This document shows positions 8,283 to 14,952 of a stretch of 54,246 bases of DNA, one piece after another. The stretch lies in IMG/VR virus record IMGVR_UViG_3300024275_000003, positions 1 to 54,246 of that record; one strand, given 5' to 3'. Position 1 is the first letter of the stretch. The number at the start of each line of letters is the position of its first letter. The DNA comes from a virus. Its lineage: Duplodnaviria > Caudoviricetes. The notes below the pieces were generated by a model. The model was given only the letters and a program-made list of their open reading frames with translations. It made no database searches and was not told the origin of the DNA. Both the position numbers and the translations under genes were made by a program.

Positions 8283-9002
8283 ATGCAGACCACTGAACAA
8301 AATAATAACGTTAGTACTAAGATCCAAGATCGTCAGATCGCTGAGACGAAAGTTCTCACTCTTGGTTATCTGGGTATGGGCACGGGGCGTGTTAAACCTT
8401 TCGATCAAATCTTCAATGCGGGCAAGCTGGTAACCGCGAAGGATATCAAAGATGGAATCGCTATCGATGCTCTTGTCGTTTGGGGAGGGGAAGATATTAG
8501 CCCTTCTCTGTATGGTGCCAGCCCTAGTAGTTATACTGGTGCTCGTGCTACGTTGTCTCATCGCGATCTCTGCGAGTCAACAGCCTGTCTGGAAGCAATT
8601 GAGCGAGGCATTCCTATTATTGGGATTTGTCGTGGCGCTCAGCTTGTCTGTGCAATGGCTGGCGGTAGTCTCATTCAGCATGTTAATAATCATGGCATTA
8701 CACATTTGATGGAAACCAATGATGGTCGACGTATCCAGACCACATCGGTCCACCACCAGATGATGTATCCGTTCGATACGGAATATGAGATGTTGGCATG
8801 GTGTAGCCCCAAGCGGAGTACAACGTACGTGATTGAAGGTGACAAGCAGCAGGATATGGAAGACAAGGTAGAACCCGAAGTTGTGTTCTTTCCTCGTATC
8901 AAGGCTATTGCAATTCAAGGCCATCCGGAATTCTGCAGCAATCCGCAAGATGAGTTCGTGCAATATTGCATGGAAGTAACCCGCAAGTATCTCGGTGTTT
9001 AA
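8283..9002 (+). CDS. Class I glutamine amidotransferase / peptidase C26 (PuuD-like gamma-glutamyl hydrolase)
   Basis: WGGEDISPSLYG, GICRGAQ nucleophile elbow, SVHHQ, QGHPE triad motif. Confidence 0.9.
   Translation: MQTTEQNNNVSTKIQDRQIAETKVLTLGYLGMGTGRVKPFDQIFNAGKLVTAKDIKDGIAIDALVVWGGEDISPSLYGASPSSYTGARATLSHRDLCESTACLEAIERGIPIIGICRGAQLVCAMAGGSLIQHVNNHGITHLMETNDGRRIQTTSVHHQMMYPFDTEYEMLAWCSPKRSTTYVIEGDKQQDMEDKVEPEVVFFPRIKAIAIQGHPEFCSNPQDEFVQYCMEVTRKYLGV
8301..8318. repeat. 18-bp dyad motif copy 11 (intragenic)
   Basis: AATAATAACGTTAGTACT. Confidence 0.8.
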
Positions 9003-9019: not shown

Positions 9020-9790
9020 ATGATGCGAGTTGTTAAAGGCTGTGACCCGGAAGTTTTTTTGATCGATGCAAATGGCAAGTTCATCTCGTCGGTTGATAAG
9101 ATTGGGGGATCGAAAGATATGCCCATGCCGATCGATCACAACGGTAATGCAGTACAGGAAGACAATGTAACGGTGGAGTTCAACATCCCTCCGTGTCACA
9201 ACAAGATCCAGTTCATTGAGAACATCAATCGTAACAAGGACTGGATCAAGAACAAGGCAGAAGAACTGGGTCTGTCCATCGCAATCAAGGCATCGGCGGT
9301 GTTCGATGATGACCAACTTCAGACGCCGCAAGCTCAGACTTTTGGTTGTGAACCCGACTTCAATGCATGGAGGCATGGTGAAGAAAATCCTCGTCCTAGC
9401 GCTGGCAATGCCAATCTGCGTAGTTGCGGGGGCCATATTCATATTGCCCTTCCTGATGGTGTTGATCCTCTACTGGCTGTACAGTGCATGGATCTCTATG
9501 TCGGGTGCCAGATGCTGGAATTCGACAAGGACGCAGACCGTCGGCAACTCTATGGTAAAGCGGGAGCCTTCCGTCCCAAGTCCTACGGTGTCGAATATCG
9601 TACAGCTTCGAACGCATGGATCGAAACCGATGAACGCATCAGTTGGGCATGGGATCAGACGGACCGTGCAATCGAACACGCAAGCAAAGGTGTACCATTT
9701 ACCGCCGAACAAGCTGCAATGATCCAAGACTGTATCAACAACAGTGATCTCGGTTTGCTGGCAATGCTCAAGAAGGAGTTCGATCTGTGA
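9020..9790 (+). CDS. phiEco32-like COOH-NH2 ligase type 2
   Basis: GCDPEVFL, QEDNVTVEFNIPP, FGCEPDFNAW, LRSCGGHIH, RRQLYGKAGAFRPKSYGVEYRT. Confidence 0.9.
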   Translation: MMRVVKGCDPEVFLIDANGKFISSVDKIGGSKDMPMPIDHNGNAVQEDNVTVEFNIPPCHNKIQFIENINRNKDWIKNKAEELGLSIAIKASAVFDDDQLQTPQAQTFGCEPDFNAWRHGEENPRPSAGNANLRSCGGHIHIALPDGVDPLLAVQCMDLYVGCQMLEFDKDADRRQLYGKAGAFRPKSYGVEYRTASNAWIETDERISWAWDQTDRAIEHASKGVPFTAEQAAMIQDCINNSDLGLLAMLKKEFDL

Positions 9791-9987
9791 AGATTGTCTA
9801 CAAAGTTGTAGAGAGCGAGCGTCGTGAGGGATACAACCATCGATGGAGATACACCCTATATCAACGTAAGTGGTGGGGTGGATGGGAAAAGATACTGGAA
9901 ACTGATATCTGGGATAGGGTTCAGGAAATACTAGGTGGACCATCAACAAGGTATTTCAATGCTTTTGGTAAGGAGATTTGTCAATGA
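9787..9987 (+). CDS. Small hypothetical protein
   Basis: AAGGAG SD, translationally coupled at both ends. Confidence 0.6.
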   Translation: MKIVYKVVESERREGYNHRWRYTLYQRKWWGGWEKILETDIWDRVQEILGGPSTRYFNAFGKEICQ

Positions 9988-10604
9988 CAAATGCTGAAAT
10001 TCTTCAGGACTTCCGTCGGCGCTACGAAGGGACGTATGTGTGGCTGTCGATGGAAGATCAGACAAAGGAAACGCTTGTCAAGGTAGCCCGAGTGGCGGAC
10101 GATGCGAACAAGGTTGGAGTACTGCTCCTAGACTCACTTGAGTATGGTTCGCTCACGATCAATATGGGTAGCGAAGGGCATGCGTTACGGTTCAAGAACC
10201 CCCCTGTTGGTGTCTTCCAGCATGGTGTGGATGCATACTCGTTTGTCCGTCGTCCGGCGAAGCAGTATCGTCGGGGTATCTGTGCGGATAACAGTACGAT
10301 GCGTAATGTATCAGCAGCGATTGTGGGGAATCGTTGTCGGTTTACTGCACAGGAAGTCTTGAGTGCGTATAAGCACCAGACTTATTCACTTTACGAAGCA
10401 CTAGAGATGCTTCGAAGGGGAAAGGCTCGCAGTGTGGCACTTGATAACAACTATAGCATCAGTCTTAGTTTTAATAGCTCTGCTGACCACGTTGTGTTCC
10501 ATTGGAATCACCCTATTGCTCGGTGCAATACGGGTGGCAAGATCACCACAATCTACGAGGACGTCTACAAATCTGGACTGGGCCGACTTTTTAGCAACAC
10601 TTGA
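9984..10604 (+). CDS. Hypothetical protein of the amidoligase cluster
   Basis: TAAGGAG SD, ~206 aa between the two ligases. Confidence 0.8.
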   Translation: MTNAEILQDFRRRYEGTYVWLSMEDQTKETLVKVARVADDANKVGVLLLDSLEYGSLTINMGSEGHALRFKNPPVGVFQHGVDAYSFVRRPAKQYRRGICADNSTMRNVSAAIVGNRCRFTAQEVLSAYKHQTYSLYEALEMLRRGKARSVALDNNYSISLSFNSSADHVVFHWNHPIARCNTGGKITTIYEDVYKSGLGRLFSNT

Positions 10605-10620
10605 CAACAACGAGGATGAT

Positions 10621-11523
10621 ATGGCAAAAACAGTAAGCCAAGTATTTGGTATGGAAAATATCGGCCACTCGGAGTTGGGTAAGGTTGCCGCTGTATTGGA
10701 AGTACCAAGTACTAACGTTATTACTTCGGACCAAATGCTTGGTATTGAAGTGGAAGTAGAGAACTACGATGCTGTGGGTAAGGTTGATTCTGTGTGGCGT
10801 GCCCATGGGGATGGTAGCCTTCGTAATGGAGGCACTGAATTTGTTACACAGCCGATAAAGGCGTGTGATGCACCCAAGGCTTTGCAGAATCTGTTGAAGG
10901 ATTTCCTCAGCCCGAATTGCTGCTTCAGTCCTCGTACCAGTGTGCATGTCCACTTCAACATGCTTCCATATTCTGTGGATGTGGTGAAGAACATCACGAT
11001 GTTATATGCGTGCTTCGAGCCGTTGTTCTTCCGCTTCACTGGCCGGGGGCGTGCAAAGAATATCTATTGCATTCCAATCGTTGAAACATCTACGTTGCAT
11101 CACTTCGAACGGTATGCTCTGCGTGATGTGGCTGGTCGCTGGTCGAAGTACACCAGCTTGAACCTGTTGCCATTGACGACTCAGGGTACCATCGAAGCTC
11201 GTCACATGCACGGGACGTTTGATGTTCAGAAGTTGTGTATCTGGATTCGTCTGTGGTGCAAGCTGATTGAGTACTGTTTGAAGAATGAAGTCACGACAGT
11301 ACGCAAGCTCATTGCAGGGATGGAGCTGGAAACGGACTATCAACAATTGCTGAATCAGATCTTCGGCGATGATGCAGTGCATTTGAAGTATCGTGACTGG
11401 ATGGACATTGAAGCCAGTGTAACCACAGTCAAAACAGCATACACGAATATTGACACCCAATCCCGTGTACTCGCTGAGCGTGATCTGGAAAAGGGTGCTT
11501 ACTTCACTTTCAAGGCGAAATAA
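10621..11523 (+). CDS. Amidoligase (Amidoligase_2, glutamine-synthetase-like COOH-NH2 ligase)
   Basis: GIEVEVE, DGSLRNGGTEFVT, RTSVHVH, KYTSLNL, GTIEARHMHGT. Confidence 0.88.
   Translation: MAKTVSQVFGMENIGHSELGKVAAVLEVPSTNVITSDQMLGIEVEVENYDAVGKVDSVWRAHGDGSLRNGGTEFVTQPIKACDAPKALQNLLKDFLSPNCCFSPRTSVHVHFNMLPYSVDVVKNITMLYACFEPLFFRFTGRGRAKNIYCIPIVETSTLHHFERYALRDVAGRWSKYTSLNLLPLTTQGTIEARHMHGTFDVQKLCIWIRLWCKLIEYCLKNEVTTVRKLIAGMELETDYQQLLNQIFGDDAVHLKYRDWMDIEASVTTVKTAYTNIDTQSRVLAERDLEKGAYFTFKAK
10708..10725. repeat. 18-bp dyad motif copy 12 (intragenic)
   Basis: AGTACTAACGTTATTACT, 17/18 to perfect palindrome. Confidence 0.85.
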
Positions 11524-11525
11524 CT

Positions 11526-13262
11526 ATGTGCGGCTTGGTCGGGTTAATCAGTCGTCGAACTGGTGGTTTCTGGTCCAAAGATCTGGATACGATGGAACAG
11601 ATGCTGCTGATCGATTCACTGCGTGGAAAGGACTCCACAGGCGCCTTCACGGTGTACAAGAACAAGCAATCGGAAATCATCAAGGTTGCTAGTCATCCAA
11701 TGCATCTGTTTGCGTGCGGTGCTTGGGGCGAATTCCGTAACCGTGCTGTGCAACGTGGTAAGATCATTATTGGCCATAATCGTGCGGCCACGCGTGGTGC
11801 AGTTCGTACGGAGAATGCACATCCCTTCGTGGAAGACAACATCATCCTCGTTCACAATGGTACTTTATACGATCACACCAATCTGACAAAGGCTAAGGTA
11901 GAAGTAGATTCCAACGCCATTGCCCACGCACTCTCTGGTGGTGCTGACCCGAAGGAAGTGTTGCCCACTATCCGTGGGGCATTCGCCTTGATCTGGTATG
12001 ACACAGACAAGGAGAAGCTGTATGCTATCCGTAACGAGCAACGTCCGTTGTGTTTGCTGGAAACGGACGATAACTACGTGCTGTCCAGTGAGCCGTTGAT
12101 TGCGGCTTTGCCTTTGGATCGTAACAACTACAAGGTAAAGAACATCCACGTACTGGAACCGGGAGAGTTGCTGGAGTTTGATGACAAGGGCCATTACAGT
12201 TCAAGTAAGGTTGATCTGTCAAAAAAAGCTACCCCAGTTACTCACGGCACGAATGGGAATACTGGGACTGCTAGTAACTACTCTCGTGCTACTTACGGTG
12301 CAGCAAATCAACGGTGGGATCATCTGACCAATGAAGAATTGGAGGAGGATGAACTCGGCCCTTTCGGAACCGGGGCGACGGAGCCCGTCCCACCAGCAAT
12401 TCTGGATCTGAGAAAGGCTCTGGCGGACCAAGCAAAGACGAAGGGAGCGATAGCTCGTTCGAACGATTGCTCATTAACGCAGCCGAAAGGTGGCGAGGAA
12501 AAAAAGGCTGGCCATACCCAGAGTAATGTGGTTGAAGAGATTGACAAGGTAGCTGACAACAATACCAAGATGATTCAGGTCGAGCATGCTGATATTCGGC
12601 GTGGTCAGAAGGTGTTGTTCAAGATTACCGAGTTCTTCAAGGCAGAGAATGGGCGGTTTCGCTTTCGTGGAAAGCTGCATCATCCAGGCACTCCCTTACT
12701 TGACTGCGTCGGTGTTGCTCCTGCTACTTTTACTCCGGAAGGCTTAGCCCGTACGTTCCTTGGAAAGCTCGGCGTGGGGTTTGTGCATTTCATCACGCAC
12801 ACAGCGGGGGGATACAGTGTGTATATCCGTAACATGGATACTCCTACTGTTACCCAGACACACAAGCAACAACGGACTCCGTTTCTGGTGTGGCAGCATG
12901 CGTTAGCGTTCAATACGTGTATGAAGTGCGGTCAGAAGGCTAAGCCGTGGGATAAGAATTTCACGTCAGTTAGTACGATGGCAGTGACCACGAACAACGG
13001 GGCAGGTACCCGAAACGTTGTAAGGATGATGTGTGCAAATTGCGTTGAAAAGGTGCTAAAAGAAAATGAAATCGAAGATTTCCGTAAAGAGCGTGCAAAA
13101 GTCCAGAAGTCTGTCCAACAGCAGCACAATTCGACCAGTGCGGGTGAAACCGAGACTACCCCTCGTGATCCTTCCGTACAAAATTGGGAGTCAGTCCGCA
13201 AGGAATCTGGCACAGGAGATGGGAAACAGGGTCAACTACCGGATTCGCCGACTATTCATTGA
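11526..13262 (+). CDS. Class II (Ntn) glutamine amidotransferase with long C-terminal extension
   Basis: N-terminal MCGLVG, RGKDSTG, GHNRAATRG, NAHPF, HNGT, VDS; C-terminal CMKC...CANC. Confidence 0.9.
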   Translation: MCGLVGLISRRTGGFWSKDLDTMEQMLLIDSLRGKDSTGAFTVYKNKQSEIIKVASHPMHLFACGAWGEFRNRAVQRGKIIIGHNRAATRGAVRTENAHPFVEDNIILVHNGTLYDHTNLTKAKVEVDSNAIAHALSGGADPKEVLPTIRGAFALIWYDTDKEKLYAIRNEQRPLCLLETDDNYVLSSEPLIAALPLDRNNYKVKNIHVLEPGELLEFDDKGHYSSSKVDLSKKATPVTHGTNGNTGTASNYSRATYGAANQRWDHLTNEELEEDELGPFGTGATEPVPPAILDLRKALADQAKTKGAIARSNDCSLTQPKGGEEKKAGHTQSNVVEEIDKVADNNTKMIQVEHADIRRGQKVLFKITEFFKAENGRFRFRGKLHHPGTPLLDCVGVAPATFTPEGLARTFLGKLGVGFVHFITHTAGGYSVYIRNMDTPTVTQTHKQQRTPFLVWQHALAFNTCMKCGQKAKPWDKNFTSVSTMAVTTNNGAGTRNVVRMMCANCVEKVLKENEIEDFRKERAKVQKSVQQQHNSTSAGETETTPRDPSVQNWESVRKESGTGDGKQGQLPDSPTIH

Positions 13263-13968
13263 TCGGCCTAACCCAACGTTCGTGCCCAAGCCGTGGCATG
13301 TAATTATTAACTGGGGTAACAGCGATGTCGGCAGAACAAATCTTGGAGTTGATCGGGTATCTGGTATTAATCGTTGGGTCAATTCTTGCGATAGTGTTAG
13401 ACTAGCAAGTAATAAGCTTAGTACTTTCCGGGCTTTGGAGAATAAAGATGGTGTACGTATCCCCACCTTCACTACCGATCGAGCTGTGGCAGCAGGTTGG
13501 ATTAGGGATGGAGTTGTCGCTGTTTGTCGCACTCAGCTTAGTGGTCATAGTGGTGCTGGTATTGTACTTGCTGATACCGAAGATAAGTTGGTCAACGCTC
13601 CTCTCTATGTTCAGTATGTCAAGAAGCAAAAAGAGTTCCGAGTCCACGTCTGTTTCGGAGAAGTGATCGATGTGCAAGAAAAGCGAAAGCGAAAAGACGT
13701 ACCCGACGACTTCAACACCGATTTTCAGGTACGTAATCATCACACCGGATGGGTCTATTGTCGTGAAGACATCACCGAACCAGAAGGAATGCGAGAGATG
13801 GCTGTTAAAACGGTGGCCTGTCTCGGACTGGACTTTGGTGCAGTTGACATCATTTGGAACCAAAAGCGGAATGAGTGTTACGTGCTGGAATGTAACACCG
13901 CGCCGGGTTTGGAGGGATCGACAGTGGACAAATACGCATCGGCTTTTCTAAAGGAACTTGTAAAATGA
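13066..13968 (+). CDS. ATP-grasp ligase (phiEco32/LUZ24-type; start may be GTG 13144)
   Basis: PYKIGSQSARNLA, IINWG, GHSGAGI, EFRVHV, VRNH, LDFGAVDII, VLECNTAPGLEG. Confidence 0.9.
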   Translation: MKSKISVKSVQKSRSLSNSSTIRPVRVKPRLPLVILPYKIGSQSARNLAQEMGNRVNYRIRRLFIDRPNPTFVPKPWHVIINWGNSDVGRTNLGVDRVSGINRWVNSCDSVRLASNKLSTFRALENKDGVRIPTFTTDRAVAAGWIRDGVVAVCRTQLSGHSGAGIVLADTEDKLVNAPLYVQYVKKQKEFRVHVCFGEVIDVQEKRKRKDVPDDFNTDFQVRNHHTGWVYCREDITEPEGMREMAVKTVACLGLDFGAVDIIWNQKRNECYVLECNTAPGLEGSTVDKYASAFLKELVK

Positions 13969-14375
13969 AACATATTAGTGGTAATATCTGGTATCAAACC
14001 AGTCAAGGTCGGATGGAAATTGGATTCACCAAGGAATGTCTGGATGAGAAGTTGACGGAGTGTTTCCACATTCTTCCGGCGGATAATTACTCGGTGAAGC
14101 AACGTGGTCCGTTGATGGTGCTGGAAACAAACGATGGGCTGGAAGCAGTACACAGCCCCATAGCTGGTCGGGTGCTGTTCTTCTCCGACAAGGCTCGTAA
14201 CTTCCCTGATCGACTCACCGAGGAGGACGTTGTTGTTGCAATCGAAATGCCTCGGGAGGTCAAAAAAATAGCACCAAAAAAATCTGCGGCCCCCAAAGGT
14301 ACTCCCGCTACAGGTGGTAGGCTTAACTGGGATATTGATCCCTTTGATGAGCCGATGCCCTGGGATCGTGTCTAA
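13965..14375 (+). CDS. Glycine cleavage H-protein-like (lipoyl-carrier fold) protein lacking the lipoyl Lys
   Basis: W..IGFT..., V...G.LMVLETNDGLEAVHSPIAGRV aligns by eye with GcvH [20 protein letters not shown]. Confidence 0.7.
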   Translation: MKHISGNIWYQTSQGRMEIGFTKECLDEKLTECFHILPADNYSVKQRGPLMVLETNDGLEAVHSPIAGRVLFFSDKARNFPDRLTEEDVVVAIEMPREVKKIAPKKSAAPKGTPATGGRLNWDIDPFDEPMPWDRV

Positions 14376-14402: not shown

Positions 14403-14654
14403 ATGCGTTGCCTAGCCTGTAATAAACGACTAAATGAACGAGAATCTACCCGAAAGTCTGCTACTACTGGCAGCTATCTTGATCTCTGCAATCATTGTTT
14501 CTCAACCGTGGCAGAAGATATTCCTGACATTGAAGAGGGCGATGGTTACATCGACGAGTTCGAGGAAGAGGAAATTAACGGACGCGATGGAGTGGTGGAT
14601 GAGTGGGACTATCAACAATCGGTCTTCGGGGGTCGACGAAATGAGTCGGAGTAA
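14403..14654 (+). CDS. Small Zn-ribbon protein with acidic tail
   Basis: MRCLACN...LDLCNHC. Confidence 0.75.
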   Translation: MRCLACNKRLNERESTRKSATTGSYLDLCNHCFSTVAEDIPDIEEGDGYIDEFEEEEINGRDGVVDEWDYQQSVFGGRRNESE

Positions 14655-14952
14655 TCGCGGCCCCAAGATCACATGTAAAACGTGTAACGTTAAATTTAAC
14701 CGTCTGGATTGGATGCAAAACACGGACTGCGATAATCCGAATTGTCGGTGTCCCGCAGTCAAAGCGGCTAGAGAAATGACAACAAACGTAATTGAGAACG
14801 CACAGAATGCAGCCCGGGAAACGGCGAGTACTAATATTAAGACTTCTTGGGACAAGATTCCTCCCAATCGGGATACGAATGTAGGTCAGTACTACGTCAC
14901 AGTACCCGAAGTTATGTCGATCTTGGTTACACCAGTTAAGCGAGGTAAATAG
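14641..14952 (+). CDS. Cys-rich hypothetical protein
   Basis: CKTC...CDNPNCRCP. Confidence 0.6.
   Translation: MSRSNRGPKITCKTCNVKFNRLDWMQNTDCDNPNCRCPAVKAAREMTTNVIENAQNAARETASTNIKTSWDKIPPNRDTNVGQYYVTVPEVMSILVTPVKRGK
14827..14844. repeat. 18-bp dyad motif copy 13 (intragenic)
   Basis: AGTACTAATATTAAGACT. Confidence 0.7.

Follow-up and report, generated by a model that had tools for sequence, protein, structure and literature searches.

A lysine-less H-protein-fold protein encoded beside a phiEco32-type amidoligase operon in a Caudoviricetes phage

The virus record IMGVR_UViG_3300024275_000003 (Duplodnaviria; Caudoviricetes) is a complete genome of 54,246 bp with direct terminal repeats, and it was analysed here over its full length (the window). 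At the end of a phiEco32-type amidoligase operon it contains an open reading frame (ORF) for a small protein resembling GcvH, the H protein of the glycine cleavage system, with an aspartate, Asp57, at the position of the lipoyl-lysine. The ATG of this GcvH-like ORF (13965-13967) overlaps the TGA of a RimK-like ATP-grasp ligase gene by 4 nt as ATGA. Having the H-protein fold and no acceptor lysine, the protein is predicted to be incapable of lipoylation. The original prediction for this locus had the ORF, its overlap and the Asp57 codon in the same places, and these agree with the verified positions in Table 1. It had also stated that genes for the P, T and L proteins of glycine cleavage and for a lipoate ligase are missing. 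This holds for the P- and T-proteins and the lipoate ligase, since a Pfam scan of the complete record found no PF02347 (GDC-P), PF01571 (GCV_T) or PF03099 (lipoate/biotin ligase) domain; the E3/L-protein was not searched for. The PHROGs collection contains no family for the window protein.

An AlphaFold2 model based on an alignment of the 27 close homologs described below has pLDDT values >90 for residues 1-95 and ~50-57 in the tail. The model contains a compact hybrid-barrel domain bearing the motifs E54-T55-N56-[D/E]57, C33-x-H35 and N79-F80-P81-D82, followed by a variable and probably disordered tail with a short charged or aromatic motif at its end. A Foldseek search of this model against the PDB returned 22 matches at E ≤ 1e-3, and the 20 listed (through rank 21) were all H-proteins or H-protein-containing complexes (E 1e-5 to 3.8e-4, TM ~0.55-0.69). 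They include the H-proteins from Thermus, pea, bovine, human, E. coli, Mycobacterium and Thermotoga, as well as GcvH-L of Streptococcus pyogenes. Lipoyl and biotinyl domains followed the H-proteins in the ranking, with E-values of at least 4e-3. In the viral structure library BFVD, none of 245 matches reached E ≤ 1e-3, and the ESM Atlas returned GCV_H clusters only (score 0.90), which added nothing further.

At the sequence level, the Pfam profile PF01597 (GCV_H) scores 13.0 bits on the window protein (E 0.1), which is below the curated cut-off of 22.2 bits, and the match is collinear, with residues 7-78 placed on profile positions 7-79 of 122. When 27 close homologs were scanned singly, 23 of them matched PF01597 at E ≤ 1, with a best E-value of 5.8e-7. 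Alignment of the family profile with E. coli GcvH (annotated K-12 record) using hhalign gave E 1e-5 and a probability of 82% over 81 columns, pairing L-E-T-N-D-G of the phage family with a-e-s-v-k-a of GcvH. In this pairing the lipoyl-lysine is matched by Asp57, and the conserved glutamate three residues before it by Glu54. Secondary structure assignment of the model with DSSP placed N56-D57 in a two-residue turn between strands 49-55 and 58-63. The sole match of the family profile in a PDB sequence search was the E2p lipoyl domain 1iyu (E 0.37, not significant), and this alignment also sets Asp57 on the lysine of ESAKA. A structural match to the H-protein fold, chosen beforehand as a test of the idea, was thus found by AlphaFold2, Foldseek and hhalign. 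Both the likeness to GcvH, which the original prediction had drawn by eye, and its placing of Asp57 at the lipoyl-lysine position were confirmed, the former by the Foldseek, hhalign and PF01597 matches and the latter by the hhalign pairing and the hairpin turn in the model. By the curated Pfam rule, the GcvH-like ORF is superfamily-level kin of GcvH and not a member of that family.

The 27 close homologs were retrieved by a word-based search. An exhaustive profile search over 1.84 billion representatives, with clusters at 50% identity, returned 181 clusters at E ≤ 1e-3, of which 153 had E ≤ 1e-10 and 43 had E ≤ 1e-30; the best 150 of the 181 clusters were listed. The recovery of 181 clusters shows conservation of the ORF well above chance. 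The small number of hits suggests that the profile does not reach canonical GcvH; residue 57 was inspected in 173 stored proteins. These 173 proteins and the window protein form the family alignment (n = 174), which includes P0001, a protein 99% identical to the window protein that was outside alignment A1. Seven of the 27 close homologs are labelled by a source as glycine cleavage system H lipoate-binding protein, and two of the 27 have a precomputed PF01597 assignment. With the lipoyl-lysine absent, this label is functionally wrong.

Conservation within the family is concentrated in a few short motifs. Glu54, Pro65 and Pro81 are invariant (174/174) and Gly20 is nearly so (172/174), followed by Trp9, Gly68 and Ala77 (170/174 each), Pro49 (167), Phe80 (160), Cys33 (159), His35 and Thr55 (158 each) and Asn56 (156). 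The family signature consists of the E-T-N-[D/E] hairpin, C-x-H and N-F-P-D. In the hhalign alignment, E. coli GcvH lacks equivalents of T55-N56, C-x-H and NFPD and has M-V-F at the C-x-H columns. At position 57 there is Asp in 135 and Glu in 23 of the 174 proteins, and lysine in none. The remaining 16 have Thr (6), Ser (3), Asn (2), Gly (2), Cys, Met or Ile (one each). The original prediction had named conservation of the acidic hairpin residue as a test. Such conservation holds without exception in the 27 close homologs, where Asp is invariant, and as a strong preference in the whole family (158/174 acidic); it fails in the 16 non-acidic members and in an Alcaligenes phage homolog with Tyr at this position. 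The hairpin is thus the conserved core of the family, and its acidic tip is strongly preferred without being indispensable.

Every member carries a variable, low-complexity tail of ~15 to 170 residues after residue ~95. Among the 173 stored proteins, 51 end in Arg (often as RRPR or RGR), 38 end in Phe (often preceded by Glu, Asp or Pro) and many others have acidic ends, and the closest relatives of the window protein share an acidic tail motif containing Trp. The proteins have a domain-linker-motif layout, and the distinct types of tail ends suggest different docking motifs on one conserved domain. The family itself is apparently undescribed and restricted to phages, as it was seen in phage and metagenome contigs only; no relative turned up when one genome from each of 185,579 species was scanned twice by pattern (queries A3 and A1). 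Full-text literature searches, whose coverage stopped short of Iyer et al. 2009 and of supplementary files, found neither a phage GcvH-like protein nor an H-protein in an amidoligase operon.

Genomic context was analysed in 23 loci found by contig scans (8 from IMG/VR and 15 from JGI metagenomes, several of them copies of one contig) and in the distant locus L035. In searches for further loci in viral contigs, alignments A3 and A5 gave none and A6 gave one (L035). According to tblastn, the ATP-grasp gene lies upstream of the GcvH-like gene in 19 of the 23 loci, and the other four have less than 200 nt of upstream sequence. A gene for a Zn-ribbon protein follows downstream in 21 of the 23, and in the other two the contig ends first. 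Where the locus is long enough, the full order is C26/class-I glutamine amidotransferase (GATase-I), COOH-NH2 ligase, a 208-aa protein, Amidoligase_2, class-II glutamine amidotransferase (GATase-II), ATP-grasp, GcvH-like, Zn-ribbon, primase and helicase. L035, with a helicase 56% and a primase 31% identical and with a GcvH-like protein of a divergent "C-W-H" subfamily, has the same gene order and 4-nt overlaps on both sides of the GcvH-like gene. The start/stop overlap with the ATP-grasp gene is present in the window, L014, L022, L035 and L024 (the Alcaligenes phage) and probably in L011, where the start is unverified. Many relatives carry one or two small ORFs (56-63 aa), chained by 4-nt overlaps, between the ATP-grasp and GcvH-like genes. 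These inserted ORFs, among them L005:9813-10004 and L002:9701-9871, are unrelated and matched no Pfam family. The coupling of the GcvH-like gene to the ligases claimed in the original prediction was upheld in that the ATP-grasp gene is present in every locus reaching far enough (19/23 and L035), though within one phage group.

The four enzymes of the ligase operon in the window all score above their Pfam cut-offs and lie on one strand in the usual order, closely spaced or overlapping (Table 1). The nearest solved relatives of the ATP-grasp protein are RimK, the ribosomal protein S6--L-glutamate ligases (E 1.3e-5), and neither LysX nor ArgX is found among its solved relatives at E ≤ 0.01. RimK acts on a protein carboxylate. 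A predicted complex of ATP-grasp residues 30-300 with GcvH-like residues 1-100, from a run free of controls, scored 0.00 (mark 0.32) and is counted neither for nor against binding. The model of the 208-aa protein consists mostly of small beta-strand units and has no PDB match at E ≤ 1e-3, with Tudor/SH3-like domains as the weak top matches; its profile matches the equivalent ORFs of the Alcaligenes phage (E 1.7e-33), a Vibrio phage (1.9e-6) and phage KZY1 (9e-4).

Several further features of these genes were observed. The conserved 5' end of the ATP-grasp gene overlaps the 3' end of the GATase-II gene out of frame (window 13066-13262, ~75-200 nt depending on the start chosen), and the same overlap is present in distant relatives (L035:9132-9253, L024:6983-7059 and L005:8941-9125); the annotated ATP-grasp start in the Alcaligenes phage clips the conserved N-terminus. 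The Zn-ribbon protein and its relatives have strongly acidic, variable tails, often with D-Y-Q-Q, and 12 of 13 members match DUF7685 below the cut-off. Together with the RimK-like ATP-grasp protein it recalls the architecture of LysW with LysX. As a LysW candidate it was rejected, as it has no sequence match to LysW and its best PDB hit is the McsA Zn finger (E 0.2). Another ORF of 172 aa (window 14434-14952, + strand; equivalent in L035 at 10517-11047) overlaps the Zn-ribbon gene in a different frame, and its second half is Cys-rich and Zn-ribbon-like.

Table 1. Coordinates of the GcvH-like ORF, its motifs and neighbouring genes in the window, and of the two Alcaligenes phage ORFs (L024)
Feature	Position	Strand	Basis or remark
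GcvH-like, lysine-less H-protein-fold protein	13965-14375	+	136 aa; folded domain ~residues 1-95 and low-confidence tail
C33-F34-H35 codons, family-specific C-x-H motif	14061-14069	+	family alignment
Hairpin E54-T55-N56-D57-G58 codons	14124-14138	+	family alignment
Asp57 codon GAT, lipoyl-lysine position	14133-14135	+	alignment and model
K76-A77-R78-N79-F80-P81-D82-R83 codons, family-specific motif	14190-14213	+	family alignment
Tail residues 96-136	14250-14372	+	K/A/P-rich, low model confidence, acidic/aromatic motif at end
Peptidase C26/class-I glutamine amidotransferase	8283-9002	+	Pfam/PHROGs
phiEco32-type COOH-NH2 ligase (PF14395; phrog_3815)	9020-9790	+	ORF open from 8966; 34.0 bits
208-aa protein between the two ligases, family unassigned	9978-10604	+	model pLDDT 88
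Amidoligase_2 (PF12224) carboxylate-amine ligase	10621-11523	+	ORF open from 10432; 30.2 bits
Class-II (Ntn) glutamine amidotransferase, long C-terminal extension	11526-13262	+	62.7 bits
RimK-like ATP-grasp ligase, directly upstream	13066-13968	+	28.8 bits
Four-Cys Zn-ribbon protein, acidic tail, 83 aa, downstream neighbour	14403-14654	+	conserved context
Alcaligenes phage GcvH-like ORF, unannotated, 94 aa	L024:7776-8060		overlaps ATP-grasp stop
Alcaligenes phage Zn-ribbon ORF, unannotated, 66 aa	L024:8063-8263		homologous to window 14403-14654

The ligase operon is far more widespread than the GcvH-like gene. Searches with the ATP-grasp protein (tblastn) matched 314 GenBank phage records, including Pseudomonas, Escherichia and Vibrio phages, phiEco32 and LUZ24, and 313 of these have no GcvH-like match by tblastn. 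The window GcvH-like protein itself had no match in GenBank phage records at E ≤ 1e-3. With a divergent family member and the Alcaligenes ORF as queries, the sole match was Alcaligenes phage vB_Af_QDWS535 (OK172329.1), which is the only cultured or GenBank phage with a detectable homolog. Its GcvH-like and Zn-ribbon ORFs both lie within an 843-bp "empty" stretch after the ATP-grasp gene. The family HMM gives the 94-aa GcvH-like ORF 36 bits (E 2e-10 in a database of six loci), and PF01597 matches it with E 0.052; the hairpin of this ORF reads A-E-M-S-Y-G, which puts Tyr at position 57, and both C-x-H and NFPD are absent.

Six GenBank loci, from phiEco32, LUZ24, O4, KZY1 and the Vibrio and Alcaligenes phages, were compared directly, and all six encode the COOH-NH2 ligase, Amidoligase_2, GATase-II and ATP-grasp proteins. 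No likeness to GcvH was found in the small neighbours of their ATP-grasp genes (O4 gp51, phiEco32 gp79, gp78 and gp82, LUZ24 gp23, and KZY1 ORF22 and ORF23) or in the C-terminal extensions of the phiEco32 and Vibrio phage ATP-grasp proteins. The phiEco32 gp82 (L028:5404-5637) is a 77-aa DUF7195 protein (PF23825, E 4.7e-17) encoded between the amidotransferase and ATP-grasp genes, and it may be another lineage-specific small operon partner. Thus, the GcvH-like gene is not a regular component of the phiEco32-type amidoligase operon, and most phages appear to run the four-enzyme chemistry without an H-protein-like partner.

We tentatively favour a reading in which the GcvH-like protein is a non-lipoylated docking or substrate-presenting "pseudo-carrier" and a partner of the RimK-like ligase, which we hold to be possible and somewhat short of probable. 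The fold of a swinging-arm carrier, the conservation at the hairpin and two further motifs, and the fixed place behind the ligase gene fit a protein that presents its hairpin. The hairpin surface would be offered to a partner enzyme, as the same site is addressed by ligases and other partners in true H-proteins, and the partner would most probably be the ATP-grasp enzyme encoded immediately upstream, while the tail would recruit a second partner. Tolerance of Thr, Ser, Asn, Cys and Gly at position 57, Tyr in the Alcaligenes phage and the presence of the operon in phages lacking the gene argue that the tip is not an obligatory anchor and that the protein is accessory. It would then be a specificity or substrate-presenting subunit, added by one phage group to a widespread operon, and not an obligatory scaffold.

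Several observations weigh against a functional link of this kind. The 23 loci all come from a single group of phages of ~50-56 kb that share a gene order. Their synteny is real but does not constitute independent evidence of such a link, and the adjacency may reflect common descent rather than function. The context evidence covers these loci, L035 and the Alcaligenes phage, with ~150 divergent clusters outside it. Furthermore, the GcvH-like gene sits where the ligase operon meets the replication genes, in a stretch of lineage-specific small ORFs. Among the six GenBank loci, GcvH-like and Zn-ribbon genes are present in the Alcaligenes phage only (1/6), and phiEco32, LUZ24, O4, KZY1 and the Vibrio phage have no GcvH-like gene. 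The Alcaligenes homolog has lost all family-specific motifs, whereas the ligases of this phage remain ~32-51% identical.

Alternatively, the protein may have no part in the ligase chemistry and be an early host-takeover protein or a replisome-associated hub encoded beside the operon, with the H-protein fold as a generic scaffold and the tail binding a host or phage replication or transcription factor. We consider this rather unlikely, though it fares best among the alternatives to the pseudo-carrier. Its location between the ligase operon and primase/helicase genes amid variable small ORFs, the independence of the operon from the GcvH-like gene in other phages, and a constant partner that is a Zn-ribbon protein with an acidic tail are all consistent with it. 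In SSB-like and T7-type replisome contacts an acidic tail ending in Phe is typical, and the tips of the tails in the family are acidic-aromatic (Phe in 38/173) or basic (Arg in 51/173). However, the place of the gene after ATP-grasp is kept across diverged genomes while the small ORFs come and go, and the conserved residues concentrate on the carrier hairpin and not on the tail.

A covalent carrier, as advanced in the original prediction, appears unlikely, slightly more so than a separate early protein. In such a system the ATP-grasp enzyme would activate the Asp/Glu57 carboxylate and join it to an amine, the two ligases and the amidotransferase would elaborate the attached group and the C26 hydrolase would release it, making the protein an H-protein-shaped analogue of the amino-group carrier LysW. 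In the LysW system the RimK-family enzymes LysX and ArgX couple an amine to a Glu carboxylate of the carrier protein, and ATP-grasp enzymes of ribosomally synthesized and post-translationally modified peptide (RiPP) pathways activate Asp and Glu side chains. The predominance of acidic residues at position 57 with tolerated D/E exchange, the location of this residue on the protruding turn where all true H-proteins have their covalent attachment site, the RimK-like nature of the upstream enzyme, and the presence of three ATP-dependent carboxylate-amine ligases and a C26 hydrolase in the same operon point in this direction. On the other side, 15 of the 16 proteins with Thr, Ser, Asn, Cys, Gly, Met or Ile at position 57 retain C33, H35, E54, T55 and N/D-F-P-D/E, a pattern more in keeping with a binding surface than with an obligatory covalent acceptor, and the Alcaligenes homolog has Tyr. 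The enzymes are also conserved in phages without the GcvH-like gene, where their substrate must be something else. In addition, no ligase-carrier fusion was found among longer proteins of 367-2000 aa, which is weak evidence. A more specific version, in which Asp/Glu57 is the carboxylate anchor on which the ATP-grasp enzyme and two ligases build an amide-linked arm or peptide and the Thr, Ser and Asn variants are derived non-loaded forms, is slightly more doubtful again. The Asp-tether idea thus stands as a possibility in its fold, acidic preference and co-occurrence with the ligases, and is weaker than proposed in view of the non-acidic members and the operons lacking the gene.

The original prediction also offered a decoy for host lipoyl ligases or lipoyl-dependent complexes. 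Such a non-modifiable mimic of an H-protein or lipoyl domain would titrate host lipoate ligase or transferase, lipoyl synthase or lipoyl-dependent enzymes, thereby rewiring host metabolism. Besides the fold, an invariant Glu lies three residues ahead of the site and a Gly, present in 170/174 proteins, eleven residues behind it, and both positions matter for lipoylation of H-proteins; with the acceptor lysine absent, a decoy could bind without turnover. Asp43, Glu46, Glu61, Asp68 and Asp86 of E. coli GcvH are reported to contact LplA (bioRxiv 10.64898/2026.10.01.755906). Of these five acids only Glu61 is kept (as E54), and Asp86 aligns with N79, a position with Asp in 33/174 proteins. The phage domain, at net -5, is also far less acidic than E. 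coli GcvH (pI 4.05, net -21); the family has a median pI of 5.0 and a median net charge of -4, with 3/174 domains of <80 residues left out of the pI count. The comparison with E. coli is indirect. With the lack of E. coli GcvH counterparts for T55-N56, C-x-H and NFPD, these differences make the decoy improbable and the weakest of the alternatives.

To summarize the pseudo-carrier and its competitors in terms of their meaning, a large conserved phage family keeps the H-protein fold and hairpin and has swapped the lysine for an acidic residue, beside a ligase of a type that acts on protein carboxylates. This could reflect a new carrier chemistry, a new way to steer a protein ligase, or an interaction scaffold put to new use. 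Each of these, if true, would open the phiEco32-type amidoligase operon, which is present in hundreds of sequenced phages, to experiment for the first time. H-proteins and lipoyl/biotinyl domains are swinging-arm carriers, all of them working through a lysine. Should the carboxylate anchor prove true, the phage protein would be an H-protein-shaped carrier tethering via a carboxylate, and would reveal protein-templated biosynthesis in a lytic phage.

Compared with GcvH (PF01597), the phage family has the same hybrid barrel-sandwich fold, a Trp in the N-terminal region, the Glu three residues before the tip and P-x-x-G after it. It differs in having Asp/Glu (rarely Thr, Ser or Asn) in place of the lipoyl-lysine, in its own motifs, in its lower acidity and in its long disordered tail, and the window genome has no P-protein, T-protein or lipoate ligase domains. 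Three features that define GcvH, namely the curated score, the lysine and these partner enzymes, are therefore all missing. A further precedent is GcvH-L of S. pyogenes and Staphylococcus aureus, an H-protein paralog outside the glycine cleavage system that is encoded in a dedicated operon of modifying enzymes. It was the second-best structural match (PDB 5a35, E 1.3e-5, TMt 0.69, 23% identity). GcvH-L is described as a lipoic acid carrier in PMC12440151, whereas the phage proteins lack the lysine and have no lipoate ligase gene close by.

With LysW, the phage system shares the proposed logic of a small protein beside a RimK-family ATP-grasp enzyme with an acidic candidate attachment point. 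LysW is a small Zn-ribbon protein that tethers its substrates through a C-terminal Glu, whereas the candidate here lies inside the chain, on the hairpin of an H-protein fold, and the phage C-terminus is not conserved. In architecture, the neighbouring Zn-ribbon protein is closer to LysW than the GcvH-like ORF is, though it has no sequence match. To our knowledge, no H-protein-like gene has been described as part of the phiEco32-type operon. A role in cell-wall modification against superinfection, unproven, was suggested for this operon by Iyer et al. 2009, as cited in PMC10580990. Relative to this widespread operon, the window has all four enzymes and their usual order, with an H-protein-like gene added behind the last ligase.

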